This document shows positions 27,870 to 32,000 of a DNA stretch of 32,000 nucleotides, one piece after another. Origin of the DNA: Breznakia sp. PF5-3 (GTDB lineage: Bacteria > Bacillota_I > Bacilli_A > Erysipelotrichales > Erysipelotrichaceae); the NCBI RefSeq assembly GCF_029504745.1, contig NZ_JAQFIQ010000001.1:90001-122000 (forward strand), written 5' to 3'. The notes under the pieces were generated by a model. That model ran no database searches and was not told the origin of the DNA. It saw only the letters and a program-made list of their open reading frames with translations. The translations under genes and the position numbers were made by a program. How positions within the stretch are numbered: the first letter of the stretch is position 1; each line of letters begins with the position of its first letter.

Positions 27870-27879
27870 TCCGATTTTT
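27859..27879 (+). terminator. Rho-independent terminator spanning the stop codon of the preceding gene
   Basis: TCGGAC (27859-27864) pairs with GTCCGA (27869-27874) around a 4-nt loop, followed by T5 at 27875-27879. The TAG stop at 27867-27869 lies across the loop/stem junction. Confidence 0.7.
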
Positions 27880-29212
27880 GTTATTAAATATGATGAAAAA
27901 AAATGATATTTATGAAGGTACATGTAGTGATTATACATATGATGGTCTTGGGATTGTAAAAGTTGATGGTTTTTCAGTATTTGTTAAGAATGTCATTATT
28001 GGTGAAACTATTTTATTTAAACTCATTAAAATAAAGAAAAATTATGGCTATGGACGTATAATTGAGATTAAAAACCCCTCCATACACCGCACAACACCAT
28101 TCTGTGAGTATTTTGGAAAATGTGGGGGGTGTCAATTACAGCATATGGATTTAGAAGCGCAAAATGAATTAAAAGAAAATATAGTCATCAATAATATTCG
28201 CAGAATTGCTCATAGTGATGCTGAAGTTAAACCAATACTCAATGGACAGCCAAGAGCATATCGTAACAAGGCACAATTTCCATTAACAGCAAATCCATAC
28301 GCTCTTGGCTTTTATCGTATTCATTCAAATGAAATTGTTGATATTACTATGTGTCCTATACAAAGTGACAAGATAAATACACTATATCAATACCTGAGAT
28401 TACATTTAAAATCAACTTCTTTTGTATCTAAATTACGTCATATACTTATTAAACATGCATTTCATACAGATGAGATCATGTTGGTATTTATCGCTAGTGA
28501 TAACATACAAAATAGTATGGAAGAATTTATAAACAAACTAACAAAAGAACAGAATATTACTAGTGTTATTTTAAATGTAAACCGCTCTACAAATAATGTA
28601 ATTCTGGGAAATGAAGAACATTTACTTTTTGGTAGTAATACGATCAATGAATCGCTAATGGGATATACCTTTCAAATTGCTTCCAAATCGTTTTATCAAG
28701 TCAACCCAGAGCAGACAAAGGTTTTGTACGAGAAAGTATTAGAGTATGCAAATATCACTAAAAATGACACTGTAATTGATTTATACTGTGGAGTAGGAAG
28801 TATATCTTTATTTCTTGCGAAATCAGCAAAGCAGGTAATTGGGATTGAAATCGTTGAAGATGCGATTACAAATGCAAAAGCAAATGCGAAAATGAATCAT
28901 ATTAATAATATTGAATTTGTATGTAGTGATGCTGGTACATATGCTGAATATATGGTAGCGAATAATATTACTGCAAATATTGTTGTTCTAGATCCACCAA
29001 GAAAAGGATGTGATGATAAAACAATTCAAAGTGTTATTAAGATGCACCCTGAACGTATTGTTTATGTATCTTGTAATCCTGCTACACTAGCAAGAGATAT
29101 TGAAAAATTTGAACAATTTGATTATAAATGTACCATCGTACAACCCGTTGATATGTTTCCACATACATTTCATGTGGAAACGGTCTGCTTGATGTCTAGG
29201 AAAGAGAAATAA
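27878..29212 (+). CDS. rlmD: 23S rRNA (uracil-C5)-methyltransferase, RlmD/RumA family
   Basis: It has an N-terminal TRAM-like domain. The [4Fe-4S] cysteines are CEYFGKCGGCQLQH plus MCPIQ. The SAM site is DLYCGVGSISL, LDPPRKG is present, and the catalytic motif is YVSCNPATLARD. The start is uncertain (TTG at 27878, or ATG at 27890 or 27893) and no clear SD is visible. Confidence 0.9.
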   Translation: MLLNMMKKNDIYEGTCSDYTYDGLGIVKVDGFSVFVKNVIIGETILFKLIKIKKNYGYGRIIEIKNPSIHRTTPFCEYFGKCGGCQLQHMDLEAQNELKENIVINNIRRIAHSDAEVKPILNGQPRAYRNKAQFPLTANPYALGFYRIHSNEIVDITMCPIQSDKINTLYQYLRLHLKSTSFVSKLRHILIKHAFHTDEIMLVFIASDNIQNSMEEFINKLTKEQNITSVILNVNRSTNNVILGNEEHLLFGSNTINESLMGYTFQIASKSFYQVNPEQTKVLYEKVLEYANITKNDTVIDLYCGVGSISLFLAKSAKQVIGIEIVEDAITNAKANAKMNHINNIEFVCSDAGTYAEYMVANNITANIVVLDPPRKGCDDKTIQSVIKMHPERIVYVSCNPATLARDIEKFEQFDYKCTIVQPVDMFPHTFHVETVCLMSRKEK

Positions 29213-29360
29213 ATAGCGAAGTGTTGCGTATTTACTGGATTTTTTTGAGATTAGGCAATAGTTCATGAAAGTCCGTATTTCTTATTTTGAAACATATCTA
29301 CTGCAAAAACGGTCAGAGTGTTTAGGCAGTGGATTAGATGTTATAGAAGGAGGCGTTTTC

Positions 29361-30134
29361 ATGGAATTTGATTTGAGAACTTGTGATGCAGCATACAACT
29401 TCGTTCTTGATTTTATGGGTATGACTCCTGATGAGTACATCACAGAGAGTATTATAAATTGTGAGAATGACTTTGAGACATTTTGGAGCCGGAATATTAA
29501 ACGAATAAAATCAATTGATATTTCTGGGGTGAGGCTGATGGCATTTCATGTTGTAGGTTCAATTGATGAATGTTGCGAGATTAAAGAAAATGGTTTGATG
29601 AATTTACAAAGTGTTCTTTCGGAAGAAACCATCTTAAAGAAGCTATTAGAAAAAACAGGTGTCATATTTGATATTCCAAATAAGCTCGTGAGCTGTAAAG
29701 AGAATAATTATGACATTGATTATGAGAAATACAAAGGCCATCATTTCTTGACAGGAATGGATGAAAAGTTATACCGTGTTGCTCATCGAGTTTATTATGA
29801 TTTTTGTGTAAATGGATTCATGGCTAATGATAATGTGTTCAATTATGGTACTAACATTCACGAAAGGCCTGAATTCTTAATGACACTCGGAGAATTATTT
29901 CCGCAGGCAGAAAAAGTTGAAAGTTTCTGGAAAACAAAAGCTAAGAGTTATAGAGTTGACTTCTATGCGACCATTGACCAAGTTCACCGATTCAATTTTG
30001 AACTTGATGAGTATAGAGACCCTCCTTACGAGGATTGGGTTGACCTTGATGATGATATGAAACTTAAAAAATGGATGTTATCACACATTATTGATAGAGC
30101 GCATGGCGATTTGGGCATACAATTTTATATATAA
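29361..30134 (+). CDS. Hypothetical soluble acidic protein, unassigned family; gene A of the terminal cassette
   Basis: An ATG at 29361 lies 7 nt after a perfect SD GAAGGAGG (29346-29353). The track start at 29265 has no SD. The product is 257 aa with no hydrophobic segment and is rich in D/E/F/Y. I recognise no motif. Confidence 0.7.
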   Translation: MEFDLRTCDAAYNFVLDFMGMTPDEYITESIINCENDFETFWSRNIKRIKSIDISGVRLMAFHVVGSIDECCEIKENGLMNLQSVLSEETILKKLLEKTGVIFDIPNKLVSCKENNYDIDYEKYKGHHFLTGMDEKLYRVAHRVYYDFCVNGFMANDNVFNYGTNIHERPEFLMTLGELFPQAEKVESFWKTKAKSYRVDFYATIDQVHRFNFELDEYRDPPYEDWVDLDDDMKLKKWMLSHIIDRAHGDLGIQFYI

Positions 30135-30211
30135 AAGATGATGTGATAATTCCGGTAAATCAAATTATTGATATTTCAGAATTATAAAAGCATATAAAAG
30201 GCGGTGTGATT

Positions 30212-30763
30212 ATGGGTGAATATGTAAAAAAGAAAAAATACATGGTATTCCAAAGTGTAGAATCACTTCAGCAAGCTGTTAATGTTCTAAATGATGCGGC
30301 AGCTGCGGTAAATGATAAATCACGTACAATTAGAGAAAGCGCAATCCCTGAAGTGCTTGCAGGAGTATTAGGTGCTGGTATTGGCGGAGTAGGTTCTTTT
30401 GCTGCACTTTACGGGTTGGGTTCTGTTGTAGGATTATCAGCAGCAGGTATAACATCAGGACTTGCTGCAGCAGGTAGCATTGTTAGCGGCGGTATGGTTG
30501 CAGGTGTATTCGTACTTGCAGCACCTGTAGCAGCCCTTGCAGCAGCAGGAGTAGGATTTGCTACACACTTAAAAAATAAACAGTTAAGACAAGAAAAAGA
30601 ACGTTTGTATAAAGAAGCTTTGAAAAAGCATGAAGCAATTATTCAAGCTTTGAAATCTGAGGTTGATGCTGATAAAGAGCGTCTCGATTACTTACAGAGC
30701 TTAAATATTCTTCTTACGCAAATAATAAAAGACTTAAAGAAGGATTTGGGTAAGGCGGCATGA
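30212..30763 (+). CDS. Hypothetical glycine-zipper membrane protein with a C-terminal coiled coil; gene B of the terminal cassette
   Basis: An ATG at 30212 lies 7 nt after the SD AAGGCGG (30198-30204). A 73-residue uncharged core (nt 30350-30568) contains 17 Gly and 18 Ala. A K/E/L-rich heptad-like tail of about 64 aa follows. Confidence 0.8.
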   Translation: MGEYVKKKKYMVFQSVESLQQAVNVLNDAAAAVNDKSRTIRESAIPEVLAGVLGAGIGGVGSFAALYGLGSVVGLSAAGITSGLAAAGSIVSGGMVAGVFVLAAPVAALAAAGVGFATHLKNKQLRQEKERLYKEALKKHEAIIQALKSEVDADKERLDYLQSLNILLTQIIKDLKKDLGKAA

Positions 30764-32000
30764 GCAAATTCAAGTACACTGAAACAGAACAACAATTTAA
30801 TAATGCTTTGAATCATCAGTCAAAAGAATTAAGTTTAATTAAAAGACCTGATATGACATCAGTAGAAGTTTGCATTTCTGAGAGCGAAGAACTACTGAAG
30901 GAGTTAGGTATCTCTACAGAGAGTATGCCTGAAGTGGTTAACCCTACATTTCAAAGGGGGATGGTAGTTCCTACGTGGGAGGAATTGTGCATTCAAGCTG
31001 AACAGGAAGTTGGTTCAACAACAGATTTAGAATCCCTTTTTACAGATGAAGAATTGAGAATGAATCAAGTTGCTCTACGTGCTTTGAATATCGATTACAA
31101 TAATATTCATAAGCTTGATAAAATAGATATTACTATTTGTGCAACTGCAGGTATTTTGGGCGTTGTTGTTGATATTCTACTAATAGGAATTCCGAAAAAA
31201 ACACCAGAAGGTTTAAAAGGTGGGCCACTTTCCAATTATGTAAGAGACTGGTTTAATCAAAGATTTCCAGAAGTAGAAATGGAAAAACTCTCCAATTCAA
31301 AAGTAAGCAAAGTATCATTTGATGCTCAGGATAATCGCCATACTACAGAGTATGTTACCGGTTTATCTGCTTACTATCATAGATTGTTATCGCTTGGGCA
31401 TGACCCTATCCTTGGATTGATATTTGGAGTTTATGACATTTTGACTGATAAAATGACGACGATTGATAAAACTGGCAAAATGGTATCTCAGGTTATGGAA
31501 AACTATGCAGACCGAAAAGAAAGTGATATTTTTGCTGCAATTGCTAAGCAGATTATTCATTTCAAATCTGACATTACAACGTCTATGGGGCTACCGGCTC
31601 CTTTGATGGCATTATTTAACTTACTCCAGTTTGGTAGTATTGGAGAAGAAGAACAGATAATTGCTGAAATTGTGCAGGGAATGTATTACGAAGGTTATGA
31701 TTTCATTCATTTTTGTAGTATGTCAATTCCGACAATGATAATTGAAGTAATCATCAGATTAGGCTATGGCATTAAGAGGATTAAAGAAGGTAATTCTATA
31801 AAGGACTCGATTCCTTTTTCATTAAATCGAGAAAAACATCCAAAGCTGAGCACTATGTTATTCATTGGACATTCTGCGGCTACTGCTGTAAATGCTGGAA
31901 AGGTTTACTTCACCAAAAATCCTATGGCAATAAACTATCCTCAATGGATAACATTTGCTAAATATTTATACAAACAATTGAAATGGGTGTTGTTAGAGAA
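30760..32000 (+). CDS. Hypothetical large protein, 3'-truncated by the window edge; gene C of the terminal cassette
   Basis: It is absent from the ORF track because no stop occurs before base 32000. I translated it by hand. The ATG at 30760 overlaps the gene B stop (ATGA), and 413 codons are open to the edge (MSKFKYTETEQQFNNAL...KQLKWVLLE). One strong TM candidate lies at residues 123-145 (ITICATAGILGVVVDILLIGIP). Several shorter hydrophobic or amphipathic stretches follow. Confidence 0.8.
   Translation, partial: MSKFKYTETEQQFNNALNHQSKELSLIKRPDMTSVEVCISESEELLKELGISTESMPEVVNPTFQRGMVVPTWEELCIQAEQEVGSTTDLESLFTDEELRMNQVALRALNIDYNNIHKLDKIDITICATAGILGVVVDILLIGIPKKTPEGLKGGPLSNYVRDWFNQRFPEVEMEKLSNSKVSKVSFDAQDNRHTTEYVTGLSAYYHRLLSLGHDPILGLIFGVYDILTDKMTTIDKTGKMVSQVMENYADRKESDIFAAIAKQIIHFKSDITTSMGLPAPLMALFNLLQFGSIGEEEQIIAEIVQGMYYEGYDFIHFCSMSIPTMIIEVIIRLGYGIKRIKEGNSIKDSIPFSLNREKHPKLSTMLFIGHSAATAVNAGKVYFTKNPMAINYPQWITFAKYLYKQLKWVLLE

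Follow-up and report, generated by a model that had tools for sequence, protein, structure and literature searches.

Bunzi is an anti-phage system made up of BnzA, described as a TerB protein that has a lipid-interacting domain and is predicted to span the membrane with two helices, and BnzB, described as hypothetical; "membrane surveillance" is the sole functional idea offered for it (Millman et al. 2022, bioRxiv 10.1101/2022.05.11.491447). The system of Ligilactobacillus animalis DSM 20602 is marked "verified" in the supplement of that study; protection against phages AR9 and PBS1 is credited in the paper to the dynamin-like system and not to Bunzi. Here we report that a 32,000-nucleotide (nt) stretch of the Breznakia sp. 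PF5-3 genome (contig NZ_JAQFIQ010000001.1, positions 90,001 to 122,000 of the forward strand; "the window" hereafter) carries towards its end two overlapping genes, B and C, and that on sequence comparison C is a clear homologue of BnzB and B a homologue of the central membrane module of BnzA. This identity of the pair had been missed by a first-pass annotation made from the letters of the window, which suggested that gene B might encode a self-assembling membrane pore or scaffold. We suggest that B and C probably, though by no means certainly, form a Bunzi-like anti-phage cassette of two genes that lacks TerB and in which B is the small inner-membrane subunit, and that this cassette is cargo of a mobile element inserted beside a methyltransferase gene of rumA/rlmCD type. 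The two genes lie as follows:

30212..30763, + strand: gene B, 183 amino acids (aa), putative short BnzA-like membrane subunit (open reading frame (ORF) call, PADLOC, hhalign, HMMER, AlphaFold2 (AF2))
30760..32000, + strand: gene C, BnzB homologue, of which the first 413 of about 453 codons lie inside the window before its end cuts the gene (PADLOC, BLASTP, synteny, hydropathy)

The stronger of the two matches is that of gene C, which meets the PADLOC profile of BnzB at an E-value of 3.8e-61, with aa 9-401 aligned to positions 54-474 of 504 (84% coverage). Gene B matches the BnzA profile at 4.6e-10 over aa 58-153, on positions 313-411 of 544 only. Scores are well below those of the canonical proteins in both cases (BnzA profile, 37 bits for B vs 625 for canonical BnzA; BnzB profile, 206 bits for C vs 665 for canonical BnzB). 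A homologous pair from Caldifermentibacillus (locus L004) gives 1.6e-66 for BnzB and 2.1e-10 for BnzA, its B covering profile positions 264-411. Canonical pairs from the E. coli chromosome (BnzA 555 aa, BnzB 499 aa) and from Vibrio served as references. By BLASTP, the full-length C homologue of L004 is 27% identical to E. coli BnzB over 325 aa (E 1e-30). The identity of B to BnzA reaches 61% over 31 aa, within the motif GSVVG[LM]SAAG[IL]TSGLA, which B, E. coli BnzA and Vibrio BnzA have in common residue for residue, and hhalign places the B-family profile on residues 321-377 of E. coli BnzA with 96.4% probability.

The likeness to Bunzi extends to the layout of the locus. Both B-C and the canonical pairs are two-gene operons with the same gene order and a stop/start overlap, both are found on mobile or defence-island DNA, the homology of C to BnzB runs over about 330-390 residues, and B contains the pre-membrane helix of BnzA, its Gly/Ala hairpin and the start of the helix that follows. 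The locus thus holds a BnzB homologue and, upstream of it in a coupled frame, a BnzA membrane module. The difference lies in what surrounds that module: B has 183 aa whereas BnzA has 546-555, and it lacks both the N-terminal "TerB" region of BnzA, about 300 residues, and a C-terminal region of about 130. Only 46 residues precede the hydrophobic core of B, nothing in B aligns to positions 1-263 of the BnzA profile, and B has no Pfam match to TerB; likewise there is no counterpart in B of the C-terminal "lipid-interacting" region, the alignment ending at profile position 411 of 544, with about 64 residues after the core in B vs about 180 in canonical BnzA. Because C matches BnzB and the match of B is confined to the central part of BnzA, with its transmembrane and helical module, we read the pair as a candidate minimal, TerB-less Bunzi-like cassette. 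TerB also goes undetected by Pfam-A in canonical E. coli BnzA (L068 5030-6694) at E <= 0.1, so the published TerB assignment of BnzA rests on remote homology.

Since the match of B to BnzA covers 18% of the profile, in a compositionally biased region, B might instead be a housekeeping-type membrane anchor, remodelling or stress protein whose resemblance to BnzA is purely one of Gly/Ala-rich transmembrane and coiled-coil composition; similar weak matches to the LeoBC, PDC-M09A and ZorA profiles, and the failure of Pfam to find TerB even in canonical BnzA, would fit such a protein. We find this very improbable, as C is an unambiguous BnzB homologue over more than 80% of the profile and the GSVVG motif is identical in the BnzA proteins of E. 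coli and Vibrio. Nor does B behave like a housekeeping gene, because its relatives are patchily distributed, 80-93% identical across phyla and located on mobile elements. No homology of B to a known non-pore family was found: its match is the BnzA membrane module, which has no known function.

Two other defence families merit comparison. The B module shows weak, recurrent matches to the membrane-proximal part of LeoBC of the Eleos system (profile positions about 410-565 of 601), where a helical region comes after a Gly/Ala hydrophobic segment; the best of these matches is 3.2e-9 (relative P0254). B differs in having no dynamin-type GTPase domain, and its own match is near noise (E 0.21, positions 459-556). 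This similarity may be compositional. On a Priestia plasmid, the partner of BnzB homologues is a Gly-rich membrane and coiled-coil protein of 337 aa, which matches PDC-M09A at 1.5e-6, and canonical BnzA and one B fusion protein also match PDC-M09A weakly, whereas B itself has no such match.

The association of B with C is close and widely kept. The stop codon of B overlaps the ATG of C (ATGA, 30760-30763). In 84 of the loci fetched, the homologue of B spans at least 150 residues, and 83 of these have a C homologue immediately downstream, the lone exception being a contig that ends 15 nt after B. The earlier suggestion that B works together with gene C is supported by this strict synteny. DNA similarity between the window and loci of other hosts begins at 30131 (Catenibacterium, 90%) or at 30078 (L007-L009) and runs through B and C; since cross-host similarity spans only these parts, the mobile unit consists of leader, B and C. 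Across Bacillota, Actinomycetota and Proteobacteria the two genes are passed on together as a single unit, with their translation coupled.

These observations bear on the first-pass proposal in its strict form, by which B is an autonomous pore-forming or holin-like toxin that self-assembles through glycine zippers and a coiled coil and is restrained or triggered by C. Some features of the pair would suit it. B is better conserved than C in 75 of 75 loci (mean identity 81% vs 70%), as expected of a constrained effector beside a faster-evolving sensor, and the extreme case is a locus of Gemmiger formicilis, where a B of 73% identity stands beside a C of only 26%. The gap between B and C is at most 60 nt in 49 loci, and in 26 of 75 it is 250-535 nt with a small extra ORF between; this ORF, translated in L017, is a truncated B paralogue with one hydrophobic helix followed by EKDRLYQEAI...IKALK, which would suggest hetero-oligomers. 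Against an autonomous toxin, B without C was never found among the 84 loci, apart from the contig that breaks off behind B, and because of this and the stop/start overlap we do not regard B as a stand-alone pore gene. Searches of Pfam, NCBIfam and PHROGs matched B to no family of holins, pores or glycine zippers, and the prophages that carry B-C have a separate holin and amidase cassette of their own (Phage_holin_4_1 plus Amidase_2). Taken together with the structural evidence given below, we consider it unlikely that B acts as such a toxin.

Variants of the gene pair were also seen. A four-gene arrangement comprises an XRE-type helix-turn-helix protein with a Gly-rich C-terminal membrane helix, B, the truncated B paralogue (about 115-126 aa) and C (L017 6787-7167 and 5640-6236; also L006, L019, L025, L029, L031, L035, L046, L058, L061 and others); the upstream helix-turn-helix and membrane-helix gene is common to 14 of 75 loci. 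In other relatives the B module forms the C-terminal part of longer proteins (P0245 and P0257, also P0276, P0320, P0321, P0302 and P0262), with an ADP-ribosylglycohydrolase (PF03747, 1e-33) or one of at least three other N-terminal domains without a family match ahead of it.

Gene C contributes a membrane-type segment as well, a strongly hydrophobic helix at aa 119-146 with conserved aspartates D123 and D138. Short-form C proteins and canonical BnzB have in common a set of invariant polar residues (D120, D123, D138, D188, H207, H214, H267, S270, D271, S275, D314, H317, E329, H371 and N392; alignment A4, P0155 numbering), and this pattern suggests a catalytic, metal-binding or ion-binding site. 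Searches of Pfam, NCBIfam and PHROGs returned nothing significant for gene C, for gene B or for the gene upstream of them, gene A.

The start of gene B can be placed with some precision. The open frame runs on the + strand from 30206/30212 to 30763, and because a Shine-Dalgarno sequence (GGCGGTG, 30200-30206) lies 5 nt before the ATG at 30212 and all close homologues begin MGEY[VI]KKKK, the true start is that ATG. Within the protein we distinguish three parts:

30260..30313, + strand: conserved N-terminal helix, aa 17-34 of B, probably cytoplasmic, SLxxVxxVxxEAxxAL (AF2 predicted local distance difference test (pLDDT) 92-96, alignment, kept in fusion proteins)
30350..30568, + strand: uncharged Gly/Ala zipper core of 73 residues, aa 47-119 of B (composition, hydropathy, per-column conservation, AF2)
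30569..30760, + strand: K/E/L-rich helical tail, aa 120-183 of B, with a K/R-rich juxtamembrane stretch and two predicted helices with a turn at about 150-154 (hydropathy, alignment, AF2)

The compositional description of the core given in the first-pass annotation holds throughout. Its 73 residues (aa 47-119, nt 30350-30568) include 18 Ala and 17 Gly, no D, E, K or R occurs between E47 and H119, and the small-xxx-small spacings GAGIG, GSVVG, GITSG and GMVAG are all present, among 12 small-xxx-small-xxx-small runs; the core DNA has a G+C fraction of 0.50 vs 0.32 for the window and 0.36 and 0.32 for the flanks of the gene. Such a segment stands out in the window, whose other 22 proteins have 12.2% G+A and 26.4% charged residues. 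With these as background, the probability of at least 35 Gly or Ala in 73 residues is 7e-14; elsewhere G+A never rises above 32% in any 73-aa stretch, and uncharged runs reach at most 52 residues.

The composition is matched by conservation. A word-indexed search found 3,760 relatives of B, of which the best 120 are 84-100% identical to it and include named proteins from Catenibacterium mitsuokai, Streptococcus suis and Caldifermentibacillus hisashii, and an exhaustive HMMER search of cluster representatives gave 803 clusters at E <= 1e-3 and 361 at E <= 1e-10, most of the 803 being stand-alone proteins of 170-190 aa. We aligned 51 stand-alone homologues of 33-71% identity. In this alignment the charged fraction is about zero across aa 48-117, G54, G58, G88, G98 and P105 are each at least 90% conserved, and Gly or Ala occupies positions G70, G74, G79, G83, G92-94 and G113 in almost every sequence; the middle segment (70-95), rich in small residues, is the most conserved and has the consensus GLSAAGITSGLAAAG..VGGGM.AG. 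The N-terminal helix and the tail are likewise conserved, with D178 invariant. Strong purifying selection acts on the pattern of glycines and small residues in B, on P105 and on the flanking helices, and the core is a conserved feature and neither chance nor low-complexity noise.

Transmembrane glycine zippers are a general motif class of channel and pore proteins, and B resembles them in the repeated G/A/S-xxx-G/A/S spacing of its hydrophobic segment. The conserved G-xxx-G ladder and the 70-residue uncharged core would suit a pore-forming toxin. The motif alone, however, implies no pore. No Pfam glycine-zipper family (Gly-zipper_Omp, YMGG, OmpA-like) is listed for B at E <= 1, and in NCBIfam only YiaD_Gzip_OmpA is listed among glycine-zipper models (E 0.87, 9 bits vs a cut-off of 175). 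As for holins, Pfam and PHROGs gave no holin match, the sole PHROG match being a sub-threshold Rz-like spanin (E 0.0076), and the gene next to B encodes a BnzB homologue and no lysin.

The AF2 model of B, built with the family alignment, has a pLDDT of 80.6 and a predicted template modelling score (pTM) of 0.71, with helices at 17-34, 46-57, 63-69, 77-88, 96-149 and 155-179 and high confidence outside aa 58-94. The helical N-terminal segment proposed earlier is recovered as helix 17-34 at pLDDT above 90; this helix is also present in the fusion proteins, right behind their N-terminal domains. The tail, which had been taken for an oligomerising coiled coil, is helical as proposed but does not appear as a single long coil: the model has helices 96-149 and 155-179 with a turn between them, and crude scoring of heptads gives only moderate values (0.41-0.49). 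A helical hairpin is more likely, on this model, than a coiled coil, and it may bundle with the N-terminal helix. A tail that folds back in the monomer offers no single long coil for the oligomerisation of a pore, and Foldseek found no pore former for the B model in the Protein Data Bank (PDB), only generic helical bundles with a best E-value of 2.1; sequence searches of the PDB with single sequences and family profiles gave no match.

Hydropathy places membrane-type segments of B at 48-66 and 83-120, and a strongly basic stretch, HLKNKQLRQEKERLYK, follows the core. The core is probably laid out as a first transmembrane helix at about 48-69, a small-residue middle at 70-95 and a second transmembrane helix at about 96-118 that contains P105. 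Because AF2 predicts one helix from 96 to 149, the last membrane helix would continue directly into a long cytoplasmic helix up to the turn at about 150-154. In some relatives an ADP-ribosylglycohydrolase or another large domain directly precedes the B module, without a signal peptide; given these N-terminal fusions to a cytoplasmic enzyme and the K/R-rich stretch after the core, both termini are most likely cytoplasmic, and the number of passes would therefore be even, as in a hairpin whose middle is possibly re-entrant. The earlier estimate of two to three passes is in this way narrowed to the even count, the odd one being disfavoured by the same fusions and basic stretch. We view B as most likely an N-in/C-in glycine-zipper hairpin with a cytoplasmic helical bundle, in which segment 70-95 most likely lies at or near the outer face or is re-entrant. 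Conservation, hydropathy and the AF2 model are all consistent with the broader earlier description of B as a membrane-embedded glycine-zipper protein with helical cytoplasmic parts.

Upstream of B, the window runs in the order housekeeping genes, methyltransferase, gene A, B and C:

27878..29212, + strand: rumA/rlmCD-type RNA methyltransferase (TRAM plus U5 domains), a chromosomal landmark outside the system (ORF; recurrent neighbour elsewhere)
29265..30134, + strand: gene A, putative edge gene of the integrated element and variable neighbour outside the B-C unit (synteny)
30131..30211, + strand: leader of the B-C cassette, with the Shine-Dalgarno sequence GGCGGTG and an out-of-frame remnant of the end of gene A (start of DNA homology, translation)

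A methyltransferase of the same kind adjoins homologues of B-C or of gene A at many other loci (L004, L010-L014, L022, L036-L044, L097-L100), and in Catenibacterium, Caldifermentibacillus and many mitis-group streptococci it is the close upstream neighbour of B-C. From these neighbourhoods B-C appears to be cargo of a mobile element that adjoins the methyltransferase gene. In Caldifermentibacillus and in one JGI contig, B-C is found on the far side of two large serine recombinases, a SHOCT protein and a phage amidase, and its neighbours include type I restriction-modification, zeta toxin and Panacea-type toxin-antitoxin genes.

Gene A does not travel with the pair: no homologue of it was found upstream of B in any other locus, the genes there belonging to many unrelated families. 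Its relatives (L097-L101 6001-6828) are the first gene after the methyltransferase in elements that have two large serine recombinases and arsenic-resistance (ars) cargo and no B-C. Because gene A relatives recur at this place in serine-recombinase elements, the methyltransferase-adjacent site is likely an integration hot spot, and the arrangement suggests that gene A is the edge gene of an integrated element and B-C cargo inserted behind it. The annotated frame of gene A stops at 30134, and its last 17 codons are found out of frame, 30134-30187 reading KDDVIIPVNQIIDISEL* and matching the C-terminus of relatives of 275-289 aa. This break at the 3' end (window 30120-30187) coincides with the start of the Catenibacterium cassette homology at 30131, and would on that account be a recombination junction or a 1-nt indel. 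Gene A has no match in Pfam, NCBIfam, PHROGs or among phages, and a weak one (9e-5) to PtuB in PADLOC; a role as a PtuB-type nuclease partner was set aside, the match being weak and gene A unlinked to B-C. We also rejected the idea that gene A or the other upstream genes supply the N-terminal domain of BnzA in trans, for they are unrelated to each other, to BnzA and to the N-terminal domains of the fused relatives.

Close homologues of B are present in species-representative genomes of Lachnospiraceae, Oscillospiraceae, Erysipelotrichaceae, Streptococcus, Collinsella and Olsenella and in a metagenome-assembled genome (MAG) of Propionibacteriaceae, and a high-G+C proteobacterial MAG has a version of B at 46% identity. 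A C/BnzB homologue is present in 492 plasmid records, mostly enterobacterial, of which 436 are conjugative. The one plasmid record inspected, Enterobacter hormaechei IncFIB/IncFII pC309-p2 (L095 3250-5140), encodes a 165-aa B-family "membrane protein" and a 462-aa BnzB homologue, with toxin-antitoxin genes around the pair. Streptococcus phage phi-SsuFJNP8_rum and Acutalibacteraceae phage NatCom_11578, both deposited as phage genomes, also carry B-C or C. The copy in phi-SsuFJNP8_rum (MN270261; L005 8367-10362) looks decayed: C is intact and B destroyed, with only its last ~20 residues (DYLQSLNILLTQAINDLGKVA) left, fused to an unrelated ORF beside a tet(M) region.

This distribution could also be explained if B-C served temperate phages for superinfection exclusion, as a membrane complex that keeps an incoming genome out without killing the host. 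The pair is part of prophage cargo beyond recombinases (phi-SsuFJNP8_rum, NatCom_11578, L001 and L004), 24 IMG/VR contigs carry it with close B homologues, and both B and C have membrane-type segments. Yet it is common on conjugative plasmids and non-prophage chromosomal islands too, and no similarity to known Sie or Ltp proteins was found in PHROGs, and we think exclusion by temperate phages quite improbable.

Several points weigh against our interpretation of B-C as a Bunzi-like defence cassette. The homology of B to BnzA is confined to about 100-150 residues of a compositionally biased segment, and the TerB-like and C-terminal domains, the sole basis of the "membrane surveillance" idea, are absent from B. 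The only Bunzi reported as verified is the full-length system of L. animalis; the E. coli Bunzi system is listed as not active (supplement, 10.1101/2022.05.11.491447), a Bunzi system on a lactococcal plasmid failed to protect against the phages tested, and no mechanism for Bunzi is given in the later literature. On the structural side, the confidence of the AF2 model of B is low precisely in the zipper (aa 58-94), the topology of B is reasoned from hydropathy, fusions and the basic stretch, and the AF2 model of C is poor (pLDDT 55), which makes Foldseek matches from it meaningless.

With these points in mind, we propose a model in which B would insert as an N-in/C-in helical hairpin whose small-residue faces let it pack closely, helix to helix, against a second B or against the hydrophobic helix of C that contains Asp, while its N-terminal helix and two C-terminal helices would form a cytoplasmic bundle, so that the B-C complex would be located in the membrane. 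A phage that perturbs the envelope or the complex may then cause the complex to compromise membrane function and abort the infection; alternatively, the complex may block an envelope-linked step of infection. Among these outputs we give most weight to membrane permeabilisation leading to abortive infection, by analogy with other membrane-acting defence effectors. The variable domains fused ahead of the B module, TerB-like in canonical BnzA, ADP-ribosylglycohydrolase or others in its relatives, would be optional input or accessory parts, and since B is the more constrained of the pair and the N-terminal domains of its relatives differ, the B module and BnzB may be viewed as the constant engine.

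A bolder extension, which we offer as speculative and on balance doubtful, is that the B module plus BnzB constitutes the true self-sufficient core of the Bunzi family, with interchangeable N-terminal add-ons; the short pair would then be an undescribed, very widespread minimal system for membrane defence or exclusion, carried by temperate phages, integrative elements and IncF-type plasmids, with B forming a glycine-zipper pore or lesion gated by BnzB, whose invariant Asp, His and Ser residues would belong to a catalytic or ion-binding site.

At least 80 syntenic relatives associate a glycine-zipper-only partner with BnzB homologues, across three phyla and in settings that range from prophages of gut commensals to enterobacterial conjugative plasmids. 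The six short-form host taxa looked for in the published Bunzi census table are not listed there, which suggests, without proving it, that the short form went uncounted in that census, and it is probably under-counted in current defence-system censuses. For the Bunzi family, the mechanistic question would shift to the B module and BnzB. As a two-protein minimal system of 636 residues, B-C would be far easier to dissect than the canonical pair of more than 1,000, whether through mutagenesis, topology mapping or structure determination, and its usefulness lies in isolating the conserved core of a validated defence system that lacks a known mechanism.

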